Below are positions 40,487 through 58,700 of a stretch of 64,000 nucleotides of DNA, piece after piece. Position 1 is the first letter of the stretch, and the number at the start of each line of letters is the position of its first letter. The DNA comes from an uncultured Alphaproteobacteria bacterium (GTDB lineage Bacteria; Electryoneota; RPQS01). A program made the position numbers and the translations under genes. Below the pieces are notes generated by a model. That model made no database searches. It was not told where the DNA came from and saw nothing but the letters and a program-made list of their open reading frames with translations. Location: NCBI GenBank assembly GCA_964530625.1, contig CAZHAK010000007.1, forward strand, positions 21,938-85,937. Reading direction: 5' to 3'.

Positions 40487-43234
40487 CTAACGATTCGCGG
40501 TGACAATGTAATAACCCAATGTGTCCAATTCAGTCAAATCCACAAACGTGGTTCCCGGAACCGTTCCCAAAATAACTGTGTTGAAAACTGTCGCGGGATA
40601 CTGTGTACCGCGCCAAACCGTATAGTTATTGGCACCCGCTACTGGCTCCCACGTCAATTGCATCCCGTTGTCAATCACCAAGACTGTGAGATCTTCCGGC
40701 GGCAATAGTCCTGATGCCAAGATACACACGTCATCAACCGCAGCCTCAACCAGCGACCCAAGCCCTTGATCCTGTGCTACGAACCGTAACCGCATCTGAC
40801 TGGTCAGTGGGACGAATTCTTCTACAATGAAAATACTGCGCCGCCACTCTTCCCAGTCAACACGCTCATGCAGCATGGACGTCCACGTTGTGCCGCCGTC
40901 ATTCGATATGTCAATATCAAAGTAGTCTTCGCCCGGATTGTTGCCATTGTCATTCGAGTACCAACTGTACAACTCAATCGCAACGTTGCTTTCTTCGCTC
41001 AAATCCCAAACAGGCGAGAGCAGCGTTGTTTTGCCGCCGTCCACGTCATTTGCGCCCGCAGATCCGCCCGCGAGTCCGCTTGTCACAAAACAATTCACAC
41101 CGCTTTCCGTATGATCGTTTTCCGGTTGGCAGACGTTGCCGTTTGTCTCAGTCTGTTCGGGGTCCATCCGATTCCAGATTCCGTTCGTGGCATTGTCTCC
41201 CGGCGCACCTACTGCCCAACCTTGATTATCTGCCTCGAAGTCATAACAGTACAGTTCCTGCGGCATGAAGAAATTCACCGTGGTATCTGCCGATAGCATC
41301 AGTGATTCTTGCACCGCGCCGCGAGTGCCAAAGGCCCGTAAAGTATACGTATTGCCCGTCGGCATCGTCAAAGAGTAAAAGCCTTCGGCGTTGGTCGTTG
41401 CAGGTGCTATGGGTGCGTCTAAAACTTCAACCAATGCATTGGGAATACTCTGACCACCTGAGGTGTAGACATGACCGGATACCACGCCCACGGGAGCCAA
41501 TGTCATCTGCACATTAAGTTCCGTGTCACCACCCTCAGTGATCATTACGTTGTCCATCGTTACGGGCAGATACCCGAATTTCGTAAACACCAAAGTGTAA
41601 GTTCCCGCGCTGGTGGCGATGGAATAGCCACCCGCCGCGTCCGTCAGATCGCTGCGACCGTTTTCAAGAATGGAGACGTCAACGTCCACAAGCGCATTCC
41701 CGGAAGTCATCACGACGCCGGAAACTCTTCCAAGGTTGAAGACTGCTGTAACTGCGGCGTATCCATCGATAAACCCAAATCCAAACGTATTGTCATTGCC
41801 GACGGATCCATACCCGGAATCAATGGCCGTGTTTATCAGTGCCTCTTTAATCGTAATCGGATCACAATCCGGGCACGCTTGACGCATCAACGCGACAATG
41901 CCCGCGACGTGCGGCCCCGCCATTGACGTTCCGCTATATGCTCCATTGTAACCGCCGCCGGGGACACTTGAGTAAACATTCACACCGGGTGCCACAATCT
42001 CGGGCTTGATATGAGTTCCGGCACAAGGGCTTGGACCGCGGCTGGAAAAACTCGCGATCGCATAGGGCGGTTGACTTGCCGCGGCGACTTCCACAGCGCC
42101 GACAGAAAACATTTGAACTTCACTCAGCGCGTGAATTGCCGGACTGCGATGCGTCGTGGCATTCGGACCTTCGTTACCCGCACTGAATGTAACAACACAA
42201 CCCAGAGCCTCAAGATTCACAATCGCCGTGTTCCAGAAATCCCAACATTGCGTGTAGCCAGGAAAATTCTGATTGACGCCCCAACTGTTTTGCACAATGT
42301 CCGGCACGTCGTCAATCGTTTGAGGATCGCCGTCCGGATTTGCAAACCACTGAAAGGCGTTGATTACGTCGTTGTTGAAGTCGTTGCTCACTCCTTGATC
42401 TATCGCGTTGCATGCAATCCACTCTGCGTCCGGTGCGCTCCCGACCGTGTTGGTATCATTACCGGAAATCGCGCGACCGCACATCGTGCCCATGACGTGC
42501 GTGCCGTGATTGTTGTCATCGGACGGAAAAGTCGTCGGCACGGCATTCAGCACATCCAGCCAACCCGCCGATGCCCCCGCCGTCAGTCCGCGCCAGCGTG
42601 AGGCCAATGCCGGGTGATTGCCGTCAACTCCGGTGTCCAGATTTGCCACCAGCACACCCTGTCCGGTGATTCCCAACTCTCGATTCACGCGCGTCGCACC
42701 GATTGCATTCTGACCCGGAGTCAATTGCTCCGTGTCCAACGGATTGCGACCCGGTCGGTGCATTTCATCGTCGTCCTCCGCAGGAGTGTCCCCGCGGATA
42801 GGCTCAATCAGTACTGCCTGAAAGTTTTCCGATAAAGCGCGAATATCACTGCGATGCCTCAGCGCGTTGAAAAACTCGGGTTTTGCGCTGACTACAAACA
42901 AATTCTCAATCCAGTAACCCGTATAGCCCTCAACCAGACCTGTCGCTTTTCCAGCGTCCAATTCGCCGATAAACTTCGGCTGAGTCTGCGCCGCGTTCGA
43001 GCGTAGAGCGTTGTAAACCTCCGCGTATCGCTGTGCGCGTTTTGCGCCCTGCGCATGTAGCGCGAGATCGAGCATCCGGATGTCAATCGGATTCTCTAAA
43101 ATCACGATGCCGGACACGAATTCGCCCGTGCCGGCAAAGCTAAGTTCAAGATCAAAATTCGGTGACACTTCCGCTGCCGGCGCAAACCCTGCGGCAAGTC
43201 CCAAGACGAGCGTTGCAATAGCCCAGTTCCTCAT
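40487..43234 (-). CDS. Secreted subtilisin-like S8 peptidase, a paralog of the 820-4221 gene, with a C-terminal FN3-like domain and no T9SS CTD
   Basis: Signal peptide MRNWAIATLVLGLAAGFAPA. The propeptide region GYTGYWIENLFVVSA is shared with its paralogs. Motifs: VLVANLDTGVDGNH, HGTHVMGTMCG, GTSMAGPHVAGIVALM. It ends with ...LTWEPVAGANNYTVWRG...GYYIVTANR. Confidence 0.85.
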   Translation of the reverse strand: MRNWAIATLVLGLAAGFAPAAEVSPNFDLELSFAGTGEFVSGIVILENPIDIRMLDLALHAQGAKRAQRYAEVYNALRSNAAQTQPKFIGELDAGKATGLVEGYTGYWIENLFVVSAKPEFFNALRHRSDIRALSENFQAVLIEPIRGDTPAEDDDEMHRPGRNPLDTEQLTPGQNAIGATRVNRELGITGQGVLVANLDTGVDGNHPALASRWRGLTAGASAGWLDVLNAVPTTFPSDDNNHGTHVMGTMCGRAISGNDTNTVGSAPDAEWIACNAIDQGVSNDFNNDVINAFQWFANPDGDPQTIDDVPDIVQNSWGVNQNFPGYTQCWDFWNTAIVNLEALGCVVTFSAGNEGPNATTHRSPAIHALSEVQMFSVGAVEVAAASQPPYAIASFSSRGPSPCAGTHIKPEIVAPGVNVYSSVPGGGYNGAYSGTSMAGPHVAGIVALMRQACPDCDPITIKEALINTAIDSGYGSVGNDNTFGFGFIDGYAAVTAVFNLGRVSGVVMTSGNALVDVDVSILENGRSDLTDAAGGYSIATSAGTYTLVFTKFGYLPVTMDNVMITEGGDTELNVQMTLAPVGVVSGHVYTSGGQSIPNALVEVLDAPIAPATTNAEGFYSLTMPTGNTYTLRAFGTRGAVQESLMLSADTTVNFFMPQELYCYDFEADNQGWAVGAPGDNATNGIWNRMDPEQTETNGNVCQPENDHTESGVNCFVTSGLAGGSAGANDVDGGKTTLLSPVWDLSEESNVAIELYSWYSNDNGNNPGEDYFDIDISNDGGTTWTSMLHERVDWEEWRRSIFIVEEFVPLTSQMRLRFVAQDQGLGSLVEAAVDDVCILASGLLPPEDLTVLVIDNGMQLTWEPVAGANNYTVWRGTQYPATVFNTVILGTVPGTTFVDLTELDTLGYYIVTANR

Positions 43235-43263
43235 TATCTTCCTCGCTAGTTAGGAGATGCTAT

Positions 43264-45792
43264 CTATCTTTCAGACACTACAAAAAAGTACTCCGGCCCG
43301 GTCAAATCCACCGTCGTCAGATATTCGATGTTCGCGGTCGTGCCGATCAGCGTCGAGTTGCCAATGGTTGGAGGCCAAATCTCGCTACTCCAAACTGAAT
43401 AGTGATCGGCGTTGTCAGCTGCCGACCAGCGCAAATGCGCGTCGCCGTTCTCGATTGAAATGGTCAAGTCGTCAACCGCCAACGGAACGAGGCTCTCGCT
43501 TGCGTCTATTGTCACCGGCACACTCAGCACCGGAGTGATCGAATCATTCGAGTTGAGCCTCAGCGTGGCCAGCGACGGTCCCTCTGGTAAACAGCACGAC
43601 GACAATCTCAGCGTAACAATCTGCTGTCCGCCTATCGCTACACTTCCAGAAACCGGGATCGTCTGCACCGCCGGTTCCGGACAAAACTTGATTGCCAGAT
43701 TGTTGGCGATAAATGCGCCGTTGTAGATCACAGCCGTTCCCTTTGTCCGGTCGCTGTTCTGCATTCCGATCGTCGCAGACTCAAGGCGGTTCACGCCCAT
43801 ATTGCCGTACTGATACGTCACCGAACCGTCGGCTGTCAAAATCATTTCGAAATTGTAGACGCCGCTGCCCGAATAGCTCTGTACGTTCTGGAATGACACG
43901 ATAAACGAATCCACGTTGTTCGTCCAACGGCGCACGTTGGTTCCCGCGCGCTGCGGGCTCAAATCATCCCACCAACAAGCAAGAATGTTCTCTGGTGCAG
44001 TAATGCTCGGCAGTTGCGTATTGCTGTAAGACGTCGCACCGGTAGCCGTGGATGTAAATGAAATCCATCCGTTTGCCGCGACACGCACTTGCGAATAGCT
44101 ATCACCGTAAAACGGAAAACTGAATCCGATCGCATACGGGCCAAGATTTTGATCGTCCTGCGTAAACGACACCTGAGTGCCGACGGTGCTGATATCAACC
44201 CAAGCGTAAGCCGGGCCGCCCGTCACACGACTGTCAATCCACCTCCCGCCGCCAATACTTGCACCATAGTCTGTCATGTTAAAATCGAGTTCGTTCGAAT
44301 TCCATGTCAATTCGGCGTCGCCATTGTTCTCAATAGTCAAGTTCACGTCGTAGGTATCGCACAACGGAACGATTTCTGAGAAATTTGCGGGAACCACCGC
44401 AATCTCAGCACGAGGAGCGGGATTCAATTGAATATTCAATACCGTCGGAGTGCCGCCAACTACGGTTACGTTGTTAACGGTCTGACCGATAAAACCCGGA
44501 GCGGTGAACGTCAAAGAATACGTTCCCGGTCGCAGCATCCGGAAGTAGTCGCCGTGCAAAGCCGTGCTATAGGTCAAGTAGGGAATATTCGCCAACATGA
44601 CGTTCGCCCGAACTGGATGACCCGTTGAAGCATCTGTTATAATTCCGCGCACGCCCTCGCGAGCCTGCTGTAAGTAGTTGATCATTGCTTGACGATTCTC
44701 GTTCCACAAACTATCCAGCGCGCTTTCGGGGCCGGACTTCGTATGTGAAACCTCCATTGTCACTTCTTTGCAGCCCATCCAGACGTAGTTCCAATCCTGC
44801 ATTCCGCCGTTCACATGATACCAATCCGCGCCATTGGTCGTGCCGTCCGGTGGAAATTGATTGCTGCCGAACATCGTCGGATTTTCCTGCGCGTACACCA
44901 ACGAAATATGATAGAAGAGCGCGTTCTCAGGCGAGGGAGAAAAGATACTCTGACCCGTGTAATTGCTGTCCCACGGGTAGTTTGCGACGATTGTTCCCCC
45001 GTGAAAATTCGCCGAGATAACGAAGGTTCGTGTCGCCGAAAAATTCATCACCGCCGCAGTTTCGGCTTCCCGGCCGGTCGTCGTATTCGTCGAGTCGTTC
45101 ACACGATCCGGGAAATCCCGGTTCAAGTCGATCCCGTTCGCGTTAAATCTTTGACCCAACGACCCCACGTCGCGTCCGTCGGGATTCATCAACGGCATAA
45201 TGTATATTTCAAAGTCATTCACGAGGCCTGTCAATTCCGGATCAATGCCGTAGCCCGTAAGCAGCGTATCGATCAGTTTCATGCAATTCTCAAGCCCGGT
45301 CACTTCATCCCCGTGCATCGAAGAAATGTACTTTACTTCGATTTCCGGTTCATCCACCCCGACGTTATCGGAAACTTTTGCCATCAGCATCGGACGCCCC
45401 TGCACACTATTGCCGATGTTCTGCCATGAAAACAGAGTCGGATAAGCCGCAGCCCAGGCGATAAAATCGGCCTGAATATCCGCATTCTCGTGGTACTCAT
45501 CCAAACTTCCGTGCTCAACGCGTTCTTCCGGCAGCCAGCGTACCGAAAAGCCACGCGCGCGCAGCGCATCAAAATCCTCCGGAAGCAGATAAACATGCGG
45601 CACCGGTCCCCTATAATGATCAAAAATACCACCCGCATCTTGAATCAACTGCGCGTCCAGCGGAGACTTGATTTCAATCTCGGCCAATCTTGAATTCAAC
45701 ATGTTCTTCTTCACGGGTCGCGCTTGAGGCGCGACTGCTATGACAAAACATGCGACTATTACTAATAACAACTGATACGTTCGTAGCATCAT
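43264..45792 (-). CDS. Secreted M14 family zinc carboxypeptidase with C-terminal beta-sandwich and FN3-like domains
   Basis: The start is at the internal Met (MMLRTYQLLLVIVACFVIAVAPQA). YISSMHGDEVTG is the HxxE zinc site. NFHGG holds the third zinc His. It has a long C-terminal extension. Confidence 0.8.
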   Translation of the reverse strand: MMLRTYQLLLVIVACFVIAVAPQARPVKKNMLNSRLAEIEIKSPLDAQLIQDAGGIFDHYRGPVPHVYLLPEDFDALRARGFSVRWLPEERVEHGSLDEYHENADIQADFIAWAAAYPTLFSWQNIGNSVQGRPMLMAKVSDNVGVDEPEIEVKYISSMHGDEVTGLENCMKLIDTLLTGYGIDPELTGLVNDFEIYIMPLMNPDGRDVGSLGQRFNANGIDLNRDFPDRVNDSTNTTTGREAETAAVMNFSATRTFVISANFHGGTIVANYPWDSNYTGQSIFSPSPENALFYHISLVYAQENPTMFGSNQFPPDGTTNGADWYHVNGGMQDWNYVWMGCKEVTMEVSHTKSGPESALDSLWNENRQAMINYLQQAREGVRGIITDASTGHPVRANVMLANIPYLTYSTALHGDYFRMLRPGTYSLTFTAPGFIGQTVNNVTVVGGTPTVLNIQLNPAPRAEIAVVPANFSEIVPLCDTYDVNLTIENNGDAELTWNSNELDFNMTDYGASIGGGRWIDSRVTGGPAYAWVDISTVGTQVSFTQDDQNLGPYAIGFSFPFYGDSYSQVRVAANGWISFTSTATGATSYSNTQLPSITAPENILACWWDDLSPQRAGTNVRRWTNNVDSFIVSFQNVQSYSGSGVYNFEMILTADGSVTYQYGNMGVNRLESATIGMQNSDRTKGTAVIYNGAFIANNLAIKFCPEPAVQTIPVSGSVAIGGQQIVTLRLSSCCLPEGPSLATLRLNSNDSITPVLSVPVTIDASESLVPLAVDDLTISIENGDAHLRWSAADNADHYSVWSSEIWPPTIGNSTLIGTTANIEYLTTVDLTGPEYFFVVSER

Positions 45793-45808
45793 TTCACCTG
45801 CTCTAAGT

Positions 45809-46633
45809 TTAGTCAACCCCGGCGTTCGAATGCAGTTCAATCCACTCGCTCCATGAACCCGGATATAGTTTCAAATCTGTGTAGCCGGCTTGATCCATTG
45901 CCCATAACAATTGGCAAGCCGTCACACCCGACCCGCAGTAGGCCGTGACGGCTTGCTGATCATGCACACCTAATCTTTCGAAAGCCTCACGCAATTCAGT
46001 CTTGCTCTTCAGTTGCGGAGGATCGCCCGTCATAAGCTCCGAAAGCGGCATGTTGCTCGCGCCTTCAATGTGCCCTGCGCGTTTGTCAAGCGGCTCGATC
46101 TCGCCTTGATAACGTTCTGAGGCACGTGCGTCAAGTACGGCTTCTCCGGCTGCGATACTTTGCGCAACAGCACGGGCATCCACCATCAACTCTTCCCGCA
46201 GTCGAATCTCAAACGGAGCCACGGAAGAAACTGCTTTCTCTGCAGTCTCGACTGCGCGTCCTTCCGCCTTCCACTTGGCAAATCCCCCATCCAGCACGGC
46301 CACGTCATCAACGCCAATCCACCGAAGCAGCCACCACAGCCGCGCGGCCAGCTTAAAGCCCTTTGCTTCCGTACAAATAACGCGCCTGCCCTGCCCAATT
46401 CCCTTGCGAGCAAGTCGCTTAACAAGCTCTTCAGGAGTCGGGAGTGGATGACGGCCCTTGGAAAAATCTCCGACTTCCGACAGATCCAAATCCACATCCA
46501 CAAACACCGCGTTTGGAATGTGGCCCTCCAAATAGCTTGCGTACGCCGCCTTTGGATCCATGTGAACCCAGCGTATATCGGCAATCACAATCCCGGGATC
46601 ATTGATGTACTCGGCCAGCCAGTCCGTCGTCAC
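45809..46633 (-). CDS. sseA: 3-mercaptopyruvate/thiosulfate sulfurtransferase (tandem rhodanese domains)
   Basis: The active-site loop is YCGSGVTACQL. There are two rhodanese domains. A GTG start at 46633 gives MTTDWLAEYINDPGIVIADIRW, a typical SseA N-terminus. The longer ORF in the track (to 46990) overlaps the upstream beta-helix gene and is rejected. Confidence 0.75.
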   Translation of the reverse strand: MTTDWLAEYINDPGIVIADIRWVHMDPKAAYASYLEGHIPNAVFVDVDLDLSEVGDFSKGRHPLPTPEELVKRLARKGIGQGRRVICTEAKGFKLAARLWWLLRWIGVDDVAVLDGGFAKWKAEGRAVETAEKAVSSVAPFEIRLREELMVDARAVAQSIAAGEAVLDARASERYQGEIEPLDKRAGHIEGASNMPLSELMTGDPPQLKSKTELREAFERLGVHDQQAVTAYCGSGVTACQLLWAMDQAGYTDLKLYPGSWSEWIELHSNAGVD

Positions 46634-46644
46634 AATCTGTGTCG

Positions 46645-49600
46645 TCAAGGCTGCGGCTCTGCCAATACTTGAAAGAATCCCTTCACCGGGTGAACCGGGC
46701 CAATAAACTGAAAAACTGTAAAGGTGTCCGTCGTTATCACGACGGTCGAGAGAAAACTCCCGCTCATGCTCGAGTCCGTCTTGACTGTAAACAGAGCCGG
46801 AACATTGTAGCTCCAATGCAGCCACACGCTGTCCGAATTCGCGCGAATCATCAAGTCCTCGATCGGCGCAAGCGGTTCGCCAAGCTGCGGACCGTGATAC
46901 CCCTGATCGGGTCTGGATATGTCTGCGATGAAATCGATGCGAGTCGTTCCTTCCGGAGCAATCAACAGCGTGTCCCCGGCATTCACACACGGAGATTGCA
47001 CGCTATCTCCCGTCGAAAGCTGCGCCAAATAGAATCCGTGACCCGATCCGCTCACCCACTGGGGATCCAATTGAATGTTGTAGTAGCGGTCACACGGATC
47101 ACTGTTCGAGTTCAAGCTGTCCAATATGCCAATACTCGCCGGCCCCTGATTAGGGGTGTCCGCAAAGAATGCGAAATTCGCGGAGTCATTCTGCGCCACG
47201 CAATTGTAGCGTACGACAGACGTCGATGTCACGAAGAAAAACATCCCGTCGCCGTGATTCTTGGCGATGATATTGTTCTTCACCTGCGGGGAGCCAAAAC
47301 GAATGTAAACTCCCGCGCCATCCACTCCACTGTTTCCTGAAATCGTGTTGAACTGGAGCGTTGCGCTCGCGCTGCCCACCCATATCGCGCCGCCCGCAGG
47401 TGCGCTGTTATTCAAAAGCAAATTATTCCTGACAAGCGTGGGTGACGTGTCCAAATGAATTCCGCCCCCTGTTGCAGAAGCGGAATTCCCTTCAATCCTG
47501 CTATTCAAAATCTGCCCGGTCGCACTCTTTGCCAAAAGTGCCCCGCCTGCCTTCGCAGATCCGCCTGCCATCACGCAATCGTCAATAATCGGATTGGAGT
47601 TCGTTGCCGCACAAACTATTCCGCCCGAGTCGGCAGAACTGCTTGAGAGAAAACATTCCGTAAATACTGGCGAAGACTGTGTCAGATAAACCGCGCCGCC
47701 CTGCAACGCTTTGTGCCGCGAGATCGAGCAATGAACGAACGACGGTGAAACACCGCTTAGCCAAATCGCTCCGCCCTGTGTCCGTGAAGTTGTCAGGGCC
47801 CACGAGTCACTCCAACCGACATAGTCAAAAGCGCTCGCTCCGGCGCTACCGCTCATGGTAATCCCACGCCAGCGACCCGGATTGCTCACGGTGTCTGTAG
47901 CAAACAAAATAGAATCTGAAACGTTTCCTATCGCAGTTACAACCCCCTTAACATCCATGCCGCATGGACCACAGAACAATAACGTGGTTCCCGCCGCAAT
48001 CGTCAAATCTTCCCCCGTATTCACGACGATATCCGCGAAGACTTTCACGGTATCGGGTCCAAGAGTACCTGATTGCGGTCCGAAAATTCCTACTGGCGAA
48101 ACTCCAAACGCACTCTCAATCGCGCCCATATCCGGCAAGCTTAAGAGTGGCAGAGGTCTATTCTCCCCGACAATGTCTTGTGCCAAGGTGTTCCAATTCC
48201 CCGAACCTATGGCAGAGCTGTTCGCACTCAAACTCCAGTCACCGTTTGCCGTATCAGCAAACATCGGATCTGAAAATACATTCAAGAATGTGTCACAGGA
48301 ATCGCCGTTCATGTTTTGAGCCACCGGAACCCCGATAAACTCAGGACCCTGCGCAGCATCGTTCTCCAAATAACCTATTGTTCCCCTTAAAAGTGAATAC
48401 GCAATCCGCGAATTCTTAGACGCACCAAAATACACATTATTGCTCGTCGACTCCGCGATGATGGAATTCTCAATATCTGCAACGGTGGATTCAAGTCGCA
48501 ACCCGCCATTAATGCTGCCGCCGATCGTGCAATGCCTGAGCGCAATCTTACTGCTATTGGCCGTCGCAAGCCCGCCTCCCAACGCCAACGATTTATTCTT
48601 CGTAATCAGGCAGTTCGTGGCCGAAAGTGTGCTCTGATTCGTCGAAATCCCGCCGCCGTTCAAAGTCGAAGTATTCTTCAATATCTCGCATGAGTTAAAC
48701 ACCGCATCCGCAGTTTCCCACAGATGCACACCGCCGCCCTCGTCACTGGCTTGGTTCCAGCGAACCCGACATCCGTTTAACGTCGGCTGTGATTGTCGAA
48801 TGGAGAGGCCGCCGCCGTTGCCCAGACTTGTGTTGCTGTCAAAATCACAATTTGTAAAGATCGGGTGCGCATTGTTTCGCAAGAACACACCACCTCCGTA
48901 AAGCCCTGCCGTGTTCTGCTTCACCACACAATTATTAAATGTCGGTGCGCCGTCTAACGTGACCCAGATTCCCGCGCCTTCGCCGACGCAGATATTGCCG
49001 CGCACTTCACACTCTTCAAACAGCCCGTTAGAGGTCGCTCGGTAGCTGTGAATCCCTCCGCCGTCATCTGCTGACGTATTCATCAAGACCTTGCACCGCA
49101 GCATATGCGGAGAGGATTCCCAAATGTAAACTCCGCCTCCGTCAAACTCAATAGTGTAGTTCCGCTCGATCAAACAATCGTAAATCAGAGGAGAAGAATT
49201 CTCACAAACAATGCCACCCCCATGACCGCGTCCCTGATTGGCTCGCATCGTCGAACTGTCAATCCGCCCTGTGGAATTTTTAAACACCAACCCTCCGCCG
49301 TTTATTCTTGCAAAATTGCTGTCAAACAAACAATGAGACAGTTGTGGTGAACCTCCGCGCAAATAAGCCCCGCCGCCGCTGCCGGAACTTGCGCTATTTT
49401 TGAAGAATCGCGAATACGTAACCACGCTGCCAATGGTATTATTTAGGAACAGCCCCGCGCCTTCGGCACGAGATACATTCCGTTCAAAGAAGCAGGAATC
49501 CATCCACAGAGTTGAGGATGTCACATACACTGCCCCACCGGCGACTTCCGCGCGATTTCTCCTGAAACTCGTGTGTTCAACTCGCAGAACGGATCCCCCA

Positions 49601-50031
49601 CCAACATAAATTGCTCCACCTAAACTATCCGGACCCGTTGGACCGGGAGCCAGCGAATTCTCAAACACCGCATAGCGCACGAAGCTCGAGTCATTGGCGT
49701 TAATTAAACTCAACCCACGCCACTTGGAAGGATTCAGAAGCGTGTCGGTCGTAAAAACTGCCGAGTCCCCTAGCGTTCCACTCACGGCAAGATAGCCATT
49801 GACAGTCAGCGAAAAAGCGCCCGCAAAATATATTCTGACCCCTGAGCCAACCAGCAGACTATCGCTTGCGGCAACACTGAGATTTCCTTGAACAACATAA
49901 GGACTTCCGGCACTCGTCCAACTTCCGCTGACAGGACCCGACACCACAAAGGTCGTATCCGCCCGCGCAGCCAGCACGCTGACCAAGAAACTCAGCGTCC
50001 AAAAAGTGAATGGTTTACCCGGGAATCTCAT
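46645..50031 (-). CDS. Large secreted right-handed parallel beta-helix repeat protein (pectin-lyase-fold), 1128 aa
   Basis: Signal peptide MRFPGKPFTFWTLSFLVSVLAARA. There are dozens of PbH1-type repeats (NxxxxGGGI/GGAI...N....). The C-terminus is FN3-like. Confidence 0.7.
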   Translation of the reverse strand: MRFPGKPFTFWTLSFLVSVLAARADTTFVVSGPVSGSWTSAGSPYVVQGNLSVAASDSLLVGSGVRIYFAGAFSLTVNGYLAVSGTLGDSAVFTTDTLLNPSKWRGLSLINANDSSFVRYAVFENSLAPGPTGPDSLGGAIYVGGGSVLRVEHTSFRRNRAEVAGGAVYVTSSTLWMDSCFFERNVSRAEGAGLFLNNTIGSVVTYSRFFKNSASSGSGGGAYLRGGSPQLSHCLFDSNFARINGGGLVFKNSTGRIDSSTMRANQGRGHGGGIVCENSSPLIYDCLIERNYTIEFDGGGVYIWESSPHMLRCKVLMNTSADDGGGIHSYRATSNGLFEECEVRGNICVGEGAGIWVTLDGAPTFNNCVVKQNTAGLYGGGVFLRNNAHPIFTNCDFDSNTSLGNGGGLSIRQSQPTLNGCRVRWNQASDEGGGVHLWETADAVFNSCEILKNTSTLNGGGISTNQSTLSATNCLITKNKSLALGGGLATANSSKIALRHCTIGGSINGGLRLESTVADIENSIIAESTSNNVYFGASKNSRIAYSLLRGTIGYLENDAAQGPEFIGVPVAQNMNGDSCDTFLNVFSDPMFADTANGDWSLSANSSAIGSGNWNTLAQDIVGENRPLPLLSLPDMGAIESAFGVSPVGIFGPQSGTLGPDTVKVFADIVVNTGEDLTIAAGTTLLFCGPCGMDVKGVVTAIGNVSDSILFATDTVSNPGRWRGITMSGSAGASAFDYVGWSDSWALTTSRTQGGAIWLSGVSPSFVHCSISRHKALQGGAVYLTQSSPVFTECFLSSSSADSGGIVCAATNSNPIIDDCVMAGGSAKAGGALLAKSATGQILNSRIEGNSASATGGGIHLDTSPTLVRNNLLLNNSAPAGGAIWVGSASATLQFNTISGNSGVDGAGVYIRFGSPQVKNNIIAKNHGDGMFFFVTSTSVVRYNCVAQNDSANFAFFADTPNQGPASIGILDSLNSNSDPCDRYYNIQLDPQWVSGSGHGFYLAQLSTGDSVQSPCVNAGDTLLIAPEGTTRIDFIADISRPDQGYHGPQLGEPLAPIEDLMIRANSDSVWLHWSYNVPALFTVKTDSSMSGSFLSTVVITTDTFTVFQFIGPVHPVKGFFQVLAEPQP

Positions 50032-50417
50032 GCTCTTTCAAGAAGTCTTTTTTGTCAATTATGTCGCCCCACGGGCGTTCCTTTCTATCCTTACAATTTG
50101 CAACGGATTCCTGCTGAAAGCAAGGAAGTCTCGTAAAGATTTTTTGCAGACAGATAATGTATCTGATACCCAAATCAATAAAAATCAATGAATAATAACC
50201 ACAAGGGGCAGCAGAGTTCTTACATTTATAGAAATCCGAGGCAGATACCTAAATAGATGATTTTCGGCAACAAGGAGAGGCATCGACCCGCAAACCGAGA
50301 GAGGCAGGTGTGTAACCCAGTCAATGTTTTTCTCAACTTTCTGTTAAAACATCAGATAACCTGAACTAATGCTGGTAAGAAACGTGTCGCAAATGTGATT
50401 TAAGTTACTGAGATAGA

Positions 50418-50446
50418 TTGCATAGCAGTCTCTAACGTGCTATAAT
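50418..50446 (+). promoter_or_regulatory. Near-consensus sigma70 promoter (-35 TTGCAT, 17-nt spacer, -10 TATAAT) for the small-protein/giant-peptidase operon
   Basis: ttgcat at 50418-50423, tataat at 50441-50446, with an exact 17-nt spacer. It lies in a 486-bp AT-rich intergenic region, and an AGGAG ribosome-binding site sits 8 nt before the ATG at 50518. Confidence 0.6.
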
Positions 50447-50517
50447 CTACCGTAATACACCCAGAAGTTACTCTCTTCGGGGTGAGAATAGATGAATTTT
50501 GTGTGAAGGAGACACAC

Positions 50518-50901
50518 ATGCGATGGATGTTTATGCTTGCAATGGTTTCGATGATTGCGATTTCTGCCTTTGCGGAGGAAGAAAAATCAATCGAGGCATT
50601 GCCCACGGACGCCCAAGTTCTGGATCAACAGATGCGTGATTTGTTGATGGAAAGGGAAGCGGTACTGACCCAAATGGCCGAGGACATGAAGACCGCACCC
50701 TTAGACGAGCGTACAGCACGCGACGCTGAGTACGCGGATATGCAAACTCAATACGAGATTCAATTGCTGGAGATGATGGTCGAGTATTATGAAGTGACTG
50801 GAAATGAGCAATTGCGACTTCGTGCCGAAGCAAACCTTGCACAAATGTTGGCGCCCGCTGCAACAGGAACGCCGGAAGCCGTGAATGGGGAGGGACGCTA
50901 A
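50518..50901 (+). CDS. Small secreted acidic alpha-helical protein of unknown function (paralog of the next gene)
   Basis: ATG at 50518 follows a GAAGGAG ribosome-binding site. Signal peptide MRWMFMLAMVSMIAISAFA. The mature protein is about 108 aa and rich in Glu, Gln and Ala. The C-terminal motif is LEMMVEYYEVTGNEQLRLRAEA. Confidence 0.6.
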   Translation: MRWMFMLAMVSMIAISAFAEEEKSIEALPTDAQVLDQQMRDLLMEREAVLTQMAEDMKTAPLDERTARDAEYADMQTQYEIQLLEMMVEYYEVTGNEQLRLRAEANLAQMLAPAATGTPEAVNGEGR

Positions 50902-50902
50902 A

Positions 50903-51385
50903 ATGAAAAAGATTACTTTGATTATTCTTCTCGCCTTGCCTTTGGCTCTTTGGGCAAATCAACCTGTCCAAAAAGGTGAGCGCTACGACGACGCGGTGAT
51001 CGTAGACAAAGCTCCGACCGGAAGCTCAACCGAAGCTCGTGTTGACGACTTGGCGGGCGAACCAGTCACGACTATTCTGCAGCCCGAGTTTCAAGAGCTT
51101 GAAGACCGCTACGCGGAACAGTTGAACCAACTCCGTGCGCAAATTGAGCTGGCCGCGCCGGATCAGCAGGAAGCACTCGAACTTCAAGCCGTTGCGCTAA
51201 AGCAAGAACTTGAAGGGGCCAGACTTGAAACCGTGTTAAACTATGTTCGCGCACAGGGCAACACTGACGCAGAAAAGCGCGTGCTGGAAGCGATTCACAA
51301 CTATCAGAATCCGACCCCGGTACAGAGAGTGAGCGTTGAACGCGATCCGAAAACCGGTGCTGAGAAGAAGGGAGTTTCGCGATGA
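50903..51385 (+). CDS. Small secreted alpha-helical protein of unknown function (paralog of the previous gene)
   Basis: ATG at 50903 follows GGGAGGG. Signal peptide MKKITLIILLALPLALWA. The C-terminal motif LETVLNYVRAQGNTDAEKRVLEA matches the motif in the upstream protein. Its stop overlaps the next start (ATGA). Confidence 0.6.
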   Translation: MKKITLIILLALPLALWANQPVQKGERYDDAVIVDKAPTGSSTEARVDDLAGEPVTTILQPEFQELEDRYAEQLNQLRAQIELAAPDQQEALELQAVALKQELEGARLETVLNYVRAQGNTDAEKRVLEAIHNYQNPTPVQRVSVERDPKTGAEKKGVSR

Positions 51386-54300
51386 ATAGGCTTTTTCTCT
51401 TTCTAGCGATACTTCTTATCACCGTCAGCGCGAATGCCGCAACTGATTCGCAATCGGAGTTTGTGCGCGATGCTCAAAATGAATGGGTGCCCGAGCCCCC
51501 GACACGAGATTTCTCAAAGCGCATTGTCTTTGACAAATATGTGTGGGAAGAAGGAGTTGACCCCAAAGCACGCTTCCTCAATTTGCTCATGGTGAAGTTC
51601 TTCGATGAAGACACTGTGCGCCTGCGTGACGGCCAGTTGACTTCGTTGACGGGACGCGATATTTCTTTTACGAAATCCTTTCTTGCCCGCCATCCCGAAA
51701 TCTCGCCCCGCGTGATTATATGGAACAAAACTGAAGAAAAATACATGGCAAATCTCGCCCGCATCGAGAAGAAGTCGGGCTGGGATTTGGTTGACCTTTT
51801 CAGCTTCTATTGCTTCGAATTGCCGGAAGCACCCGCTGACGCGCAAGCGTTGATCAGCGAGATTCTCGATGCTCCCGAGGTCGAAACCGCTTATTACGAG
51901 CCGATTCCCGTGGATTTCTTGTGTCAAGATCTCGGGAACACGACACCAAACTTCCGCCCCAACCAAACATATCACGATGCTGCCCCTGTTGGTGTCGACT
52001 TAGATTGGGTGTGGGCAGAACATATTGATGATGTCGTGGACGGACCCGGCACAGGTCGTTGGACTGGAATCTTTGAGCGCGGACTCCAAACCACACACGA
52101 AGACTTCACCTTAGCTGAAGTGGCCACAGCTGGCACGCCTGATTCAGACAACGATCACGGAACGGCTGTGACAGGGTTGCTGGGCGCCTGCGATGATAAT
52201 GGGGTTGGTTGTATTGGTTTTATGGCCGATCAGAGAATGAGGCTCTATCAACGGAATTCAGGCTCTTACGGTTCCACGGCTGATATTTACAATCTAGCCA
52301 ATGGGCAACTGGTTTCTGGTGAAGTCACGAACTCATCATGGGGCTACACGGCAAATCCACTCCCTCCGGGACAAACATGTCCTTGCAATCCAGGTCAAAA
52401 CGGCTCAGTACCCATTGAGTATTCAGCAAGTGTTAAGGCAGAAGTTCAGGCGGGCGTTGCAGATGGTATTCACTACTTTCTGTCCGCAGGGAATGGATGC
52501 ACGAACCTTGATGACGCGACTTTTGGAACAACCTTCAGAAATTCCACAGACACAGGATCAAACTACGTCTCCGCAATCCAGTCTGCGGCTGGCCACAATG
52601 CATCCTGCTTTACGTGCTTTGGCGAGCGCTGTGACCTGAACGCATGGGGCGATGGGAGTTTTACGCTGGGCTATAATTCCGACGGTACTCCGTTTGTACC
52701 GGCATCCCAGGACGAGTGGTACACGAACGGATTCAATGGAACATCGAACGCCTCCCCGACCGTTGCCGGCTGTGCAGGCGTCATTCACAACGTGGTCAAC
52801 TATTATACCGGATCGACGCTGTCCACTTCGTTGATGCGAAACTATCTCAATAACTACGGTACCGCACCAGGCACGACTCCGGGGAATATCGGTGTCATGC
52901 CGAATCTCTTCGGAATCATGTCGGCTAACCTGAATCCCGATTTCCGCACTGGTTGGACCTGGTATATGGTGCCGAGAAGTACAGGAGGTGCGACAGCGGA
53001 CAACTGTCTTATCACCGCGAACTTAAGCCCCGACCCGTCACTTACCTATTGGAATGCCGCTGCGGAGAACGAAGCGGTTATCGGCTGGGGAACTCCGGCG
53101 GCGTACAGAATTTATTTAGACGACGTGTGGGAAATCGGCTGGGTGGACGGAAACGACACTTTGCATGCGCAAGAAAGAACTTACGGCATTAATGCTAGTA
53201 CTACCGTTCGCGGTGGTCGCCACTTTGTTCGCCTGACCGTTGATCCACTTGATCAAGTTGATGAATGGGTTGAAACCGACAATAGCGAACACAATCAATG
53301 GGTCTGGAACCCCCGCCAATTTACGAACGGCCAGATCCTAACCTTGTCTTCGCCTCCGATAAAGTATGCTACAGACCAGCTCTCCGAGGGTTTCTCATAT
53401 CCCAATGTGGATGGCTATGGTGGCGAAAACTTTCAATTCGATGGATACTGGGATATCATGATGGTGATGGCCCAATCTTCAACTGCAGATTACGACGCAC
53501 GTATCTACAGCGAAGATGTCACCTCGACAAACGGATTTGACGACACCGAAGCCTCCTCTGCGTACGTTTCGTTCAGCGATTTCGTAGGCGTCAACAACAA
53601 TGTCGCCGGTCAGTCTCAAGAATTGATTGCCGCTGTGCTTAATTATGACGGTGAATCTTCACAGCATCGTGTGGAGTGCGGAACTTCCACAATCCTTAGC
53701 CCCAGCACGCCCGGCATCGGCCGCACCTCCTATGGCTCGCATAGCTTAACGTCCACGGAGCTCTTTGATGTCTGGGAATTCTATGTTAACGAACTTGTTC
53801 CTTACAACATTGAAGTTGACGTCACCTCCGGAAGCGCAAACGTTGTCGTTTCTATTTACGGACCGGACGACACCTTCTTCAGCAGAGGCAACTTCAATGC
53901 GCAGTCAAACTCCGGCGGTGCGGGCGAAGACGAAATGATCTCCTGCTGGACACCCAACGCCATAGGCTGGCACGCCATCGTCGTGCACAAGCATAACTAC
54001 CTCGATTGGGATGAAACGGCTAACTTCAATCTTTACGTAGGTAAAGCAGGATTTGACTTCGTTCACACTTTAGGTACGGGTTGGTCGCACAGTTTGGTTG
54101 TAAGACAGGTTGCTGGTGGGCAGCCTGCAGTTCTGCCTGCATCTTTGACGGGCAACATTGCGACGAACTATGTCAACATCATGGCTTTGAATCAAGGCTG
54201 TACTGCCGCTGTTGCGTCTTTGGATGACCGCGTCTTTCGTGACGGACCGGCCGTTGGAACCTTTGCCAACTGGAACGGGGCAATTGTGCCGGGAGGCATG

Positions 54301-55569
54301 GCCTTCGGTTCAAATCGCAATATCGGCACTGTCCCCGGTGGCCGTCACCAAATCGGCAACGTCATTGATATTCTTAATGAAGGGCCGGAATGGGACGAAA
54401 CTAACAATCGCTACGACGAACAATTCGTTTGGACGCCTGCTCTGTTGACCAACAATGTGATGTTCAACTCGCTAAACACGGCCCCGAACTGGCGCGATTT
54501 CGATGCAACCTTGTTCTTCCCGGACTACAACGTGGACGGCTTCCGTTTTACAGGCGGTGGATTCTGGAGCGGCGTTGGCATGACTCCCAATAACACCGTT
54601 GAGGACGTATATAACTTATTCCTCTACGACCCGGCAACGTCTTCTACATCCGGGTTCGGAACTCGCTTGGTGAACTCCTGGTCAGCTGGCGCTGACGTCG
54701 AATGGGTCATTGAGAACGGTAGCCAAATCGCCAATGAAACCTTTGATGTCGGCGTTCACAACAACACCGCCTGGCCGAATGACACGTCTCTCTCCACCTA
54801 CCGTCTGCAGCAATCCAACAGAATTCAAGACCTGAATGTTGGACAATTTCACGGCGAATTCCCCTTCCCCAGCACTCAGATTATCAACGTGTTTGATCTC
54901 AATCTGACCTCTGGAGTGAGTACGGATATTCTCTTGGATAACCGTGGAACAGGTGATCTTGGATTTGCAATCTACAATCCGAGCATGCTCTATGGAAGTC
55001 GCACGACGTACACCCAATTGATTAACTTGAATGGCGACGCCGCGGATGAAGCGACAACATTTGTCCCGACTCAAACGGGCCGACATGGATTTGTGGTCTT
55101 TAAGAATGATCGCAGTGATCTGGGAGCAAATCCTTATGCGCTGGTCATCGGTGAACGTACACCAAGAGCACCGGACTCACTGGTCATCAAGTGGGCCTCA
55201 AGCTCTCCGATTTCCGTGGAATTGACGTGGGCGCCTGTGACCCAAGACATTTTCGGGCAACCAATCACGGTCGACCGTTATGACATTTACTTCACGTATA
55301 ACCTTAACGCGCTCTATCCGGCGGGTTGGGGTTTCGGTGGTTCAACCTTAGATAACACGCAAGTGCCGATTTTCCCGAATGATGCGGAGTTCGGCTTCAA
55401 GTGTCTCTTCTTGGCTGTTGACACCGATGGCTTGATCGTCGGAGGATCTGACCTGCCCGAAGGAGCCACGTCGGTCATAGGTCAAAGAGCGGAAGATGTC
55501 CGCAATGCTGCAGGATGGCACGAGAATATTCTTGTCCCACAGTCAGAACGCGTGAATTCGATTCGCTAA
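51382..55569 (+). CDS. Giant secreted kexin/subtilisin-like (S8) protein with three CARDB-like repeat modules and a C-terminal FN3-like domain; Glu sits at the predicted catalytic Asp position
   Basis: Signal peptide MNRLFLFLAILLITVSANA. His motif DNDHGTAVTGLLGA. Oxyanion YFLSAGNGCTN. Ser motif NGTSNASPTVAGCAGV. The Asp-box position reads GTGRWTGIFERG (Glu instead of Asp). Repeats occur at VDEWVETDNSEHNQWVW, LDWDETANFNLYV and GPEWDETNNRYDEQFVW. Confidence 0.65.
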   Translation: MNRLFLFLAILLITVSANAATDSQSEFVRDAQNEWVPEPPTRDFSKRIVFDKYVWEEGVDPKARFLNLLMVKFFDEDTVRLRDGQLTSLTGRDISFTKSFLARHPEISPRVIIWNKTEEKYMANLARIEKKSGWDLVDLFSFYCFELPEAPADAQALISEILDAPEVETAYYEPIPVDFLCQDLGNTTPNFRPNQTYHDAAPVGVDLDWVWAEHIDDVVDGPGTGRWTGIFERGLQTTHEDFTLAEVATAGTPDSDNDHGTAVTGLLGACDDNGVGCIGFMADQRMRLYQRNSGSYGSTADIYNLANGQLVSGEVTNSSWGYTANPLPPGQTCPCNPGQNGSVPIEYSASVKAEVQAGVADGIHYFLSAGNGCTNLDDATFGTTFRNSTDTGSNYVSAIQSAAGHNASCFTCFGERCDLNAWGDGSFTLGYNSDGTPFVPASQDEWYTNGFNGTSNASPTVAGCAGVIHNVVNYYTGSTLSTSLMRNYLNNYGTAPGTTPGNIGVMPNLFGIMSANLNPDFRTGWTWYMVPRSTGGATADNCLITANLSPDPSLTYWNAAAENEAVIGWGTPAAYRIYLDDVWEIGWVDGNDTLHAQERTYGINASTTVRGGRHFVRLTVDPLDQVDEWVETDNSEHNQWVWNPRQFTNGQILTLSSPPIKYATDQLSEGFSYPNVDGYGGENFQFDGYWDIMMVMAQSSTADYDARIYSEDVTSTNGFDDTEASSAYVSFSDFVGVNNNVAGQSQELIAAVLNYDGESSQHRVECGTSTILSPSTPGIGRTSYGSHSLTSTELFDVWEFYVNELVPYNIEVDVTSGSANVVVSIYGPDDTFFSRGNFNAQSNSGGAGEDEMISCWTPNAIGWHAIVVHKHNYLDWDETANFNLYVGKAGFDFVHTLGTGWSHSLVVRQVAGGQPAVLPASLTGNIATNYVNIMALNQGCTAAVASLDDRVFRDGPAVGTFANWNGAIVPGGMAFGSNRNIGTVPGGRHQIGNVIDILNEGPEWDETNNRYDEQFVWTPALLTNNVMFNSLNTAPNWRDFDATLFFPDYNVDGFRFTGGGFWSGVGMTPNNTVEDVYNLFLYDPATSSTSGFGTRLVNSWSAGADVEWVIENGSQIANETFDVGVHNNTAWPNDTSLSTYRLQQSNRIQDLNVGQFHGEFPFPSTQIINVFDLNLTSGVSTDILLDNRGTGDLGFAIYNPSMLYGSRTTYTQLINLNGDAADEATTFVPTQTGRHGFVVFKNDRSDLGANPYALVIGERTPRAPDSLVIKWASSSPISVELTWAPVTQDIFGQPITVDRYDIYFTYNLNALYPAGWGFGGSTLDNTQVPIFPNDAEFGFKCLFLAVDTDGLIVGGSDLPEGATSVIGQRAEDVRNAAGWHENILVPQSERVNSIR

Positions 55570-55591
55570 ACCGTCACTTAATTTGTGATCC

Positions 55592-55627
55592 AAACGAGGC
55601 CCCGCGGGGCCTCGTTTCGTTTTGATT
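55592..55627 (+). terminator. Strong rho-independent terminator after the giant peptidase gene
   Basis: aaacgaggcccc-gc-ggggcctcgttt is a perfect 12-bp stem at 55592-55617, followed by cgttttgatt. Confidence 0.8.
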
Positions 55628-55748
55628 GAGGCACGAAAACTGCACTTGAGGCTATGGGTACGTTACGCAGAGTGAACAAGGAGATTCGCGGCATAGCGTT
55701 TATTATGGTGAAATTCCTCGAAGATCAATTAATCCAACGACTTTACTG

Positions 55749-58700
55749 ATGCTCGACCTGTTTCCGTCACGCTTCACCCTTAGATCAATGTTTCGGACTA
55801 TTTACACGCTCGCAACTCTACTCATCTGCCATTCCAGCCTCTGGGCGGCGAAAGACCTCCCGATGCATGGGTTCCTGGCCTACTGGCCTGCGGCGCTTGG
55901 ATTGATGGCTGCGGTGGGTTTGGCAGGGCTGTGTATCCTGACTTTTCGGAGGGCACGTAAGACCGACGAACACGATCCTGTGCTGGATTGGCGATCCCTT
56001 GCAGAAAACATCGCCGAAGCGGTTATTCTTCTGAAGGCCGATGGAACGGTGCTGTTTGTAAACCGCTGGAGCAGCGACCGTGATGTTATGATCGGTATGC
56101 CCATCGAAGAATTTATTCACGGCGATGATCGAGTTCGTTGGAAAGAGTACTACTTTCTTCGAGCAGGCAGAGCCTCCGTTTGTAAAACTGATGTTTTCAA
56201 AATGACGCTGCCCGAAGCCACCACCGCCTATTGGGAAGTGCGCATTTCGCCGCTCTCTAATGGGCCGCACGGAGCAGATATCATGCTCTGTGCCCGCGAT
56301 GTCACAGATTCCCGTTTGAAAGAAACAACTAAAGACGTTCTCCACAAAGTTACTTTTGCCTCGACTCACGTTGAGTCCTTGGAATCATTTGTCAGATACA
56401 TCGAACTGCAACTTGCCCGATTGGTGGATACAAGTAACTTCTACCTTGCTCTCTACGACAACGAGACTGATACGTACTTGAAATTCCTGTCCAGAGATCG
56501 TTCGGAGCCGCTTACAGCAGAAATCGAGCGGGTGAGCCTCAAGGGAGGATTGACTGACTATGTTCGCAAGACCGGCAAACCGGTGCTGATGAACAATCAC
56601 AATCGAGCGGAATTGATCGCTAATGGCAGCTTGCGAACAATTGGAGAATCCGCCGCTTGCTGGCTCGGGGTGCCCTTGCAAACACGCGATGACGTACTTG
56701 GTGTGCTCGTCGTGCAATCGTATAACAATCTGAATTGCTACACCAACTCTGATGTCGAACTCTTGTCGATCGTCGCGGGTTCGATAGGACGAGCGTTCGA
56801 GCGAAAATCTGCCCAAGCCGAGTTAAAGCAACGGGAAGAAAAACTCAGGCTCTTCACTGAGCGCACGCCCGCGCTGCTCTGGTCACAAGACGAAACAGGG
56901 AGAATTACCTACGCAACCGGTGCGGCGTTGTCAGCGATTGGACTTGGTCCCGACTCACTGGTTGGAAATACTCTTTGCCAGACCGTGCAGTTCAAAGACG
57001 AAGACTTCAGACAACAATTCGAAACGTTGGTGCCGGGCGCACCGCAAAGTTTCCAATTCATATTGCGTGAACGCACCTTTGAGGCATGGATCGAGCGGAC
57101 AAACAGTGCTGATGGAAAATTTGCGGGCATGACCGGCGTAGCGTTGGATGTGACTGAGAAGGACCGCGCGGGGACTGAACTGCGCAGGTTTTTTGAATTG
57201 TCCGGAGACTTGTTTGCCGTTATTGATTTGCAAGGCGTACTTGTACGCTGCAATGATGCGTACTTAAATGCCACAGGATATACGCGTGAGGAGAGAATCG
57301 GTCAGCCATCCCTCACCCTGGTTCATCCTGATGACTTTGCCTTAGCTGAGTGGGCTATGAAAAGACTGTCAGCAGGGGAGCCGGTTATCGGACTCGAAGC
57401 GCGGATTGTGTGCAAAGACGGAGGATGTAAATGGATATCCTGGAGCTCCGTTCTTGATCCGCATGACAACCTGATTTATACTTCAGGTAAAGATGTCACG
57501 AGTCGCCGTGAAATCGAGAATGCGCTTCACGAGCGTGAAGAACAACTTTGCCTCTTTGTCGAAAATTCTCCCGCGGCACTTGCCATGTTTGATCGTGACA
57601 TGAACTATATGATTGTTAGTGAACGATGGCGCACCGATTACAATCTTGGAAGCACTGACTTTGTCGGAAGATCGCATTACGAGGTCTTCCCGGAAATCAG
57701 CGATGAATGGAAAGTGATTCATAAACGTTGCTTAAACGGTGCCACTGAACAATGCTCACGCGATCCCTTCCTGCGGAATGACGGAACAACCGATTGGGTC
57801 CGATGGGAAATTCGCCCTTGGTATCGTGCCGACGGCACTATCGGCGGAATCATGATGTTCACTGAAGTCATCACCGACGAAGTCAATGCAGAGTTGGAAC
57901 TTTCACGTTCCAGAAATCTTGCCCGTCAAATTGTCGAGTCATCGCTCGACTCCGTTATTGCTATTGACGGCAAAGGGAATGTTACCGAGTGGAATCCACA
58001 GGCAGTGAAAGACTTTGGCTACACGCACGACGAAGCGATCGGCAAACCACTGCACGACCTGATTGTCCCCAAACATCTGGCCGAAGCCCACGTTCGAGGC
58101 CTTGAAAAGTACGCGCGTTCGGGTCACGCCCTGATCCTGAATCGTATCCTGAATTTACCCGCGATACGCAAGGGCGGGGAGGAGTTCCCTGTCGAAATTT
58201 CGATCTGTCCCATTCAAGTCGGTGACGAGACTCATTTCTCGGCATTTATCCGCGATATCAGTGAACGGCTTGAAAAGGAAAAAGAACTCACCGAAAGCCG
58301 CGCTCGGCTCAAAGAAGCCCAAAGAATCGCCGGTCTTGGATTCTGGGAATGGTTTGCCGAAAAAGATGAGATGTTTGTCAGCGAAGAGAAACTAACACTC
58401 TACGACAGACCTGATTTGAAACTGCCGATCACCTTTGCGCGGTTTCTTGAGATCGTGCACCCGGATGACCGACAAATGTTCATCGATACCAATCAGGCGC
58501 TCGCGTCAGGGCAGAATTCTTGCGAACTCCAATACAGAATCGTAAGACCGACGGGCGAAATCCGATATGCTTACAGCCAGGGTGAAACCGCACGAGACGA
58601 GCACGGTAACATCCTGAAGCTATTCGGCACCACGCTCGACGTCACAGACAGAGTTCTGAACGAACAAATGCTGCGGGACAGCGAACAGAGACTGGCAATG

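Follow-up and report, generated by a model that had tools for sequence, protein, structure and literature searches.

Two paralogous, exported three-helix proteins form a conserved three-gene unit with a giant secreted subtilisin-like peptidase and are candidate partners of this enzyme

Results

The two small genes and their products

The interval 50518-51385 of a 64,000-nucleotide stretch of DNA from an uncultured Alphaproteobacteria bacterium (GTDB lineage Bacteria; Electryoneota; RPQS01; assembly GCA_964530625.1, contig CAZHAK010000007.1, positions 21,938 to 85,937 of the forward strand), hereafter referred to as the window, is occupied by two neighbouring genes on the + strand, gene A and then gene B, which are directly followed by the gene for a giant secreted subtilisin-like (S8) peptidase. 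Gene A (50518..50901, ATG to TAA) encodes an exported acidic three-helix protein of 127 amino acids, gene B (50903..51385, ATG to TGA) an exported acidic protein of 160 amino acids, and the peptidase gene (51382..55569, + strand) a protein of 1395 amino acids that matches Pfam Peptidase_S8 with an expect value (E) of 7e-13. The same two small products have been called independently by gene callers on public contigs. For gene A we set the start at the ATG at 50518 rather than at the GTG at 50482 given by the open reading frame (ORF) finder, because an invariant Shine-Dalgarno sequence (AAGGAGA, 50506..50512, + strand), unchanged across four aligned loci, lies 5 nucleotides (nt) ahead of this ATG and because all gene A homologues share the N-terminus M-[RKQN]-W-M.

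As read from their sequences, both proteins begin with Sec-type signal peptides that look cleavable at AxA-like sites, comprising residues 1-19 in A (50518-50574; MRWMFMLAMVSMIAISAFA, then EEE) and residues 1-18 in B (MKKITLIILLALPLALWA, then NQP). Neither protein contains a cysteine; they therefore lack a lipobox and are not lipoproteins. The mature forms are acidic (isoelectric points of 4.1 and 4.7 for A and B, respectively), and Glu, Gln and Ala make up 33-38% of their residues. The helical core spans residues 30-111 in A and residues 60-135 in B, where it is flanked by disordered tails with conserved short motifs. The N-terminal tail of B carries the conserved ERxDD-type motif QPVQKGERxDDA (50960-50995, + strand), and its C-terminal tail, which is modelled with low confidence, carries the short linear motif R-D-P-K-T-G (RDPxTG; 51341..51358, + strand), which is conserved across the B family. 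Since the codons of the RDPxTG motif vary synonymously, selection on it appears to act on the protein level.

A and B are paralogues with a shared three-helix fold

A previous reading of the window from its sequence only had taken A and B for tandem paralogues, based on a motif aligned by eye in their C-terminal parts (L84..A105 of A with L108..A130 of B). In a direct pairwise comparison the two proteins show no significant similarity (BLASTP, E=3.0), but comparison of their families does reveal it. With alignments of close relatives, hhalign matches 81 ungapped columns (A35-115 with B59-139) at E 6e-5, and with widened families of 23 A and 39 B sequences, which reach down to about 20-30% identity, it matches 82 columns (A35-116 with B59-140) at 96.2% probability and E 2.4e-9. 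The homologous cores thus correspond to 50620..50865 in gene A, including the motif LEMMVEYYEVTGNEQLRLRAEA at 50767-50832, and to 51077..51322 in gene B, including LETVLNYVRAQGNTDAEKRVLEA at 51224-51292 (all + strand). The register of the hhalign matches, which is also that of the alignment by eye, is reproduced when 66 sequences are aligned independently with MAFFT, and in a test set of 2099 ORFs the hidden Markov model of B picks up A ORFs and that of A picks up B ORFs. AlphaFold2 (AF2) models, a check that the sequence-only reading had called for, give a helical fold for both proteins, with helices at residues 30-59, 62-94 and 97-111 of A (mean predicted local distance difference test score, pLDDT, of 80.6) and at 60-83, 86-118 and 121-135 of B (mean pLDDT of 73.2, above 90 in the core). 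The helix boundaries of the two models coincide exactly at an offset of 24 residues, which is the offset of the sequence alignment as well. Helices 2 and 3 are joined by a turn that contains the G-N of the motif, and helix 3 is terminated by a conserved (N)P. Within family A the motif residues Y90, G95, N96 and R102 are near-invariant, and in distant B members the motif is loosened to L...L.....G[DN].

Spurious matches are frequent among helical low-complexity sequences, and a similarity that merely reflects Glu/Gln/Ala-rich composition, or ORFs that are not genes at all, would agree with the pairwise BLASTP result. Such an explanation is refuted by several observations. In the comparison without signal peptides the real hhalign score is 26.0, as opposed to 11.8 +/- 2.3 for column-shuffled and heptad-block-shuffled controls (n=500), and none of the 500 shuffles attains it; the reversed profile scores 11.9. 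Moreover, four relatives that did not enter into either profile (P0044, P0050, P0052 and P0053) are recognised by each of them, with 26-30 bits by that of A and 50-59 bits by that of B, and thus bridge the two families. Finally, together with the deepened hhalign comparison and the identical helix boundaries, both families keep constant length and synteny down to about 25-30% identity. We consider it virtually certain that the similarity is genuine: A and B are paralogues which share a three-helix fold.

A, B and the peptidase form a conserved, translationally coupled unit

The A-B-peptidase trio is present in 14/14 distinct loci. Loci L001, L007, L009, L011 and L012 were reached via A or B (L002-4, L008, L010 and L013 being repeats), and the path to one of the trio loci led via a B relative with an identity of only about 30%. 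Scanning the genome collection with the full peptidase yielded only two further loci, both with the trio. In addition, eight metagenome contigs were fetched by the peptidase N-terminus alone, which makes this retrieval unbiased as to A and B, and in 8/8 of them A and B lie upstream. The genes flanking the trio differ among the loci; in L005, for instance, it is preceded by multihaem cytochromes and followed by a CoA-ligase-like gene. No further maturation or export genes are conserved around the trio among the loci compared.

The three genes are tightly joined. The stop codon of A lies 1 nt before the ATG of B, and the Shine-Dalgarno sequence of B (GGGGAGGGA, 50887..50895, + strand) is contained in the last codons of A (..GEGR*); in the 14 loci this junction consists of a G/A-rich Shine-Dalgarno sequence and either a gap of 1-4 nt or an overlap. 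The stop codon of B overlaps the start codon of the peptidase gene in the sequence ATGA (51382-51385, + strand), and a 4-nt overlap of the form ATGA or GTGA is found in 14/14 loci. Here, the Shine-Dalgarno sequence (AGGGAG, 51369..51374, + strand) is contained in the last codons of B, and the Gly codon ahead of the overlap is GGA in 14/14 loci, without any synonymous variation, which marks GGAG as the Shine-Dalgarno sequence. The unit is bounded downstream by a strong intrinsic-terminator-like hairpin with an 11-bp stem, 7 G-C pairs and a T tract (55592..55627, + strand), which ends it ahead of a kinase gene; L009 has a 13-bp hairpin at the equivalent position (14684-14712), so that the position but not the sequence is conserved. 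No terminator was found within the A-B-peptidase unit, and an Rfam scan of 49900-56000 (E<=0.1) gave no match. Upstream, the intergenic region 5' of gene A is AT-rich and poorly conserved except for two elements. One is a promoter-like extended -10 sequence (TGcTATAAT, 50438..50446, + strand), proposed from conservation only: TGnTATA(A/C)T is kept in four related loci at a mean upstream identity of 68%, and a sigma-70 consensus scan did not call it, a good -35 element being absent. The other, GGATGAA at 50487-50493 in the presumed 5' untranslated region of gene A, is likewise conserved across four loci. Taken together, we infer that A, B and the peptidase are co-transcribed as one unit that would extend from the extended -10 promoter to the terminator. 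The coupled stop and start codons with their embedded Shine-Dalgarno sequences therefore suggest that the three proteins are made together in fixed proportion and that the small ones are translated first. The linkage to a secreted peptidase, to which the sequence-only reading had pointed, is thus conserved with translational coupling in every locus examined.

The peptidase

In the peptidase, a signal peptide is followed by an N-terminal region that resembles a propeptide. The catalytic domain occupies roughly residues 200-500, and the C-terminal part consists of long non-catalytic domains. It is acidic, with an isoelectric point of 4.3 and a net charge of about -93. Its His motif (DNDHGTAV) and Ser motif (NGTSNASP) are canonical and both match subtilisins in the PDB. 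The Pfam Peptidase_S8 match begins downstream of the Asp block, and in this block D32 of BPN' (with the sequence taken as VIDSGIDSSHPDL) aligns with an invariant glutamate of the peptidase, Glu232. A Ser/His/Glu triad within the S8 fold is thus a possibility for this enzyme. In the surrounding segment (residues 229-241, GIFERGLQTTHED, 52066-52104) an H-x-D follows at a spacing of 7 residues, as it does in BPN'.

A wider family of small genes upstream of giant secreted proteins

An exhaustive profile search with B returned 30 cluster representatives at E<=1e-3, nearly all of them 145-165 amino acids long. The bridging relatives are single-copy wherever context is available. Locus L028 (GCA_018812265.1, 6001-10571) has one small gene, separated by 21 nt from the downstream gene for a 1378-residue S8 peptidase, which is a full-length homologue of the window peptidase (29% identity over 1290 amino acids, E 6e-112). 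As only a single small gene is present there, the A/B pair would have arisen by tandem duplication, and an ancestral single gene that was later duplicated to give A and B is the simplest history suggested by the sequences. Locus L030 (712-4962) likewise has one small gene, here 9 nt ahead of the gene for a protein of more than 1252 amino acids, which shares the non-catalytic region of the window peptidase (residues 509-774 and 982-1143, 30% identity, E 3e-17) and contains an HEYGH (HExxH) motif. The S8 His and Ser motifs are absent from this protein, and it has no match in Pfam or the PDB and hence no assigned metallopeptidase family, its link to HExxH-type enzymes being made through the HEYGH motif only. 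The small protein of L030 may thus recognise the accessory domains rather than the catalytic domain.

In one 257-residue relative, P0054, a B-like protein seemed to be fused to the peptidase N-terminus. We regard it as the product of a frameshift or an assembly artefact, as its B-like part ends in ..VQTRSGKRGSAGRRRT, in contrast to ..VERDPATGEALKGGSR in P0036, which is closely related to it; it nonetheless confirms the order of B and then peptidase in another lineage.

In the databases, the relatives of A and B are named 'hypothetical protein' only. Scans of A, B and 62 family members against Pfam and NCBIfam returned only scattered sub-threshold matches of coiled-coil type. Among these, SurA_N_3 (E 0.0085, 2/39 members) and DUF4142 (5/23) recur too rarely to be meaningful. 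Profile searches against PDB sequences found only SNAREs and designed helical proteins (E>0.007). By these searches the A/B family is undescribed and has no relative in Pfam, NCBIfam or the PDB.

Neighbouring genes

Upstream of the trio, on the opposite (-) strand, lies a cluster of genes for large secreted proteins (40487-50031). It includes a 1128-residue beta-helix protein (46645-50031) that has Chlam_PMP/NosD-like repeats, another S8 peptidase with the canonical DTG/HGTHV motif (40487-43234) and, by synteny with L001, an M14 carboxypeptidase and a rhodanese gene. Downstream of the terminator lies the gene for a hybrid histidine kinase of 1612 amino acids (55749-60587), which has many PAS/GAF domains and a receiver domain.

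Discussion

Our results establish that A and B are two related proteins of a so far unannotated family, and the signal peptides, helical models and Glu/Gln/Ala-rich composition bear out the earlier description of them as secreted helical proteins. What would such a pair do next to a giant peptidase? The sequence-only reading had offered two roles, that of CpxP/Spy/ZraP-type periplasmic modulators or chaperones feeding into the hybrid kinase encoded downstream, and that of chaperones for the peptidase. With Spy, CpxP and ZraP, A and B have in common that they are small and all-helical, are exported to the periplasm and contain no cofactor. They differ in lacking LTXXQ motifs and any profile match to these proteins. 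A Pfam hmmscan of the 23 A and 39 B members (E<=1) never returned LTXXQ (PF07813) or Metal_resist, the NCBIfam scan gave no CpxP/Spy/ZraP match, and the PDB-sequence profile searches contained no CpxP, Spy or ZraP up to E=10. The expression LT..Q occurs in 0/23 A and 2/39 B sequences (once in each) and is absent from both window proteins. In hhalign comparisons of the alignments A4 and A5 with CpxP and Spy of E. coli MG1655, the probabilities were 0.7, 2.1, 2.5 and 4.1%, with sensitivity limited by the use of CpxP and Spy as single sequences. Two local look-alikes, PTDAQ..QQMRDLL of A with LTDAQKQQIREIM of Spy and APDQQ of B with TPEQQ of CpxP, are not conserved in the families. Furthermore, mature E. 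coli Spy and CpxP have isoelectric points of 9.5 and 6.1, as compared to 4.1-4.7 for the strongly acidic A and B.

The kinase gives no more support to such a role. Its N-terminus contains a clear transmembrane segment (residues 46-66) and a weaker hydrophobic segment (residues 17-34), and the loop separating these segments comprises only some 12 residues, which leaves no periplasmic domain to which a CpxP-like modulator could dock. The remainder of the protein consists of PAS, GAF and kinase domains; the kinase presumably senses cytoplasmic or membrane signals. It is separated from the trio by the terminator, and it is not conserved with it: the hybrid kinase gene follows the peptidase gene in the window, in L001-4 and in L009-11, but is missing in L005, where the CoA ligase gene takes this position, and in L007, where an aldehyde dehydrogenase gene on the opposite strand does. 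We therefore regard kinship with the CpxP/Spy/ZraP proteins and a role in kinase signalling as very improbable.

The closest parallel in gene organisation is provided by the potempins PotA-E of Tannerella forsythia, which are proven cognate inhibitors of the KLIKK peptidases (PMC9890683). Potempins are signal-peptide proteins of 118-152 amino acids, and the set includes PotC, the inhibitor paired with the subtilisin-type mirolase (PMC9890683). Their genes are located directly upstream of the peptidase genes, with the stop codon overlapping the start codon or at most 5 bp away from it, and the two are co-transcribed (PMC9890683). The A/B genes share the position upstream of a secreted peptidase gene, the overlap with it (14/14 loci for B and the S8 gene) and the co-transcription, which in our case is deduced from the sequence; moreover, both systems occur in bacteria of the Fibrobacteres-Chlorobi-Bacteroidetes (FCB) group. 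The proteins themselves differ. A lipobox cysteine marks potempins as lipoproteins of the outer membrane, whereas A and B have no cysteine; potempins are beta-barrels (of OB or eight-stranded up-and-down type), whereas the AF2 models of A and B are all-helical; and there is one potempin per peptidase, whereas A and B are a paralogous pair. There is no relationship in sequence or fold. Since both lipobox and beta-barrel are missing, A and B are not potempins, but by analogy they may work like them.

Other known systems resemble the A/B pair in single aspects. Lif of Pseudomonas and Burkholderia (LipB/LimA) is an all-alpha periplasmic steric chaperone that is encoded in the same operon as its one secreted hydrolase. 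However, Lif proteins have about 340 amino acids, are membrane-anchored, encoded downstream and specific for lipases, whereas A and B are encoded with a peptidase and have signals that look cleavable; Lipase_chap had no match in the Pfam scan of the A/B family members, which was the only comparison with a Lif profile. The WXG100/Esx heterodimers, which belong to type VII secretion with its mycosin, have a W-x-G turn and no Sec signal, as opposed to the T-G-N or Q-G-N turn and the Sec-type signals of A and B, and WXG100 was not matched in the same scan either. In Myxococcus xanthus, the small protein PopD forms a complex with the subtilisin-like protease PopC and restrains its secretion until a signal is received, with PopD being degraded following the stringent response (PMC6434023). 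Different from PopD, A and B would act in the periplasm, given their signal peptides; no relationship in sequence was noticed, though no comparison aimed at one was made.

From the gene linkage and by analogy with these systems we suggest that A and B are dedicated partners of the peptidase, acting as an escort or latency factor, a proposal to which we assign a probability of about 0.5. A and B would pair to form a helical bundle in the periplasm, and this pair would bind the peptidase precursor in a stoichiometric manner and hold the 150-kDa enzyme soluble and/or inactive until its export or activation. Binding would probably occur through the conserved disordered tails of B, with ERxDD near the N-terminus and RDPxTG near the C-terminus. 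Several observations weigh against this proposal. The peptidase has a propeptide-like N-terminal region of its own, and in subtilases it is normally the propeptide which assists folding and confers latency. Strong acidity is common to A, B and the peptidase, so that simple electrostatic binding is not favoured (neutral to slightly unfavourable). The predicted fold of A and B is a generic helical bundle and as such uninformative on function. Finally, the small gene of L030 precedes the gene for an HEYGH protein without S8 motifs, with which the window peptidase shares only non-catalytic domains, and this linkage argues against a class-specific active-site inhibitor.

A narrower idea is that A and B are potempin-like cognate inhibitors in the strict sense, which block the enzyme until it has left the periplasm and thereby protect the cell's own envelope. 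The layout of the genes is that of the potempin/KLIKK operons, down to the overlapping stop and start codons, the signal peptide and the size of the small proteins; the tails are conserved, disordered and selected on the protein level, and the small genes are translated ahead of the peptidase. Nevertheless, an all-alpha, non-lipidated protein is not what the beta-barrel lipoproteins would lead one to expect, the link of a family member to a protein with an HExxH motif and shared non-catalytic domains is unexpected for an active-site-directed inhibitor of serine peptidases, and the enzyme has a propeptide-like region of its own. We therefore consider strict inhibition rather unlikely. Alternatively, A and B might be cargo or substrates that are secreted together with the peptidase, either as pro-proteins whose tails are trimmed by the enzyme to release peptides, or as structural or surface-matrix proteins that happen to share its operon. 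Subtilases do process precursor proteins (LanP, PatA/G, mycosin-EspB), and both the conserved tails flanking a stable core and the stoichiometric co-expression with a protease would suit such a role. Then again, the surroundings of the trio show no conserved genes for other maturation or export functions, conservation of the helical core is no weaker than that of the tails, and a small gene upstream with overlapping stop and start codons fits the known accessory and inhibitor pairs, all of which leads us to view the cargo role with strong doubt.

If A and B are indeed partners of the peptidase, a more far-reaching but quite speculative proposal is that they represent a new class of all-alpha, non-lipidated partner proteins, ancestrally single-copy and here duplicated to a heterodimer, which would recognise the shared non-catalytic domains of giant secreted peptidases of the serine type and possibly also of the HExxH type. 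Their short tails would control latency or export, by a mechanism distinct from that of propeptides, potempins and Spy-type chaperones.

Conclusions

Calditrichota-like bacteria of sediments and wastewater are thought to make their living from the breakdown of detrital protein, for which they secrete peptidases of very large size. How such giant enzymes are kept harmless and competent for export on their way across the periplasm is, to our knowledge, largely unknown beyond a few model systems. The locus described here is a compact and sharply bounded module of three genes, whose small putative partner proteins belong to a family without annotation. Its layout parallels that of the recently described potempin/KLIKK system, from which it departs in the fold and in the duplication of the subunit. 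Accessory proteins of small size that are encoded beside their peptidase are known as a kind, and what is new here is the all-helical, non-lipidated and duplicated form. Should A and B turn out not to be partners of the peptidase, the strictly conserved translational coupling would still want explaining. If, on the other hand, an inhibitor or escort function is borne out, the known protease regulators would gain a new scaffold, and annotation a marker for this peptidase family.

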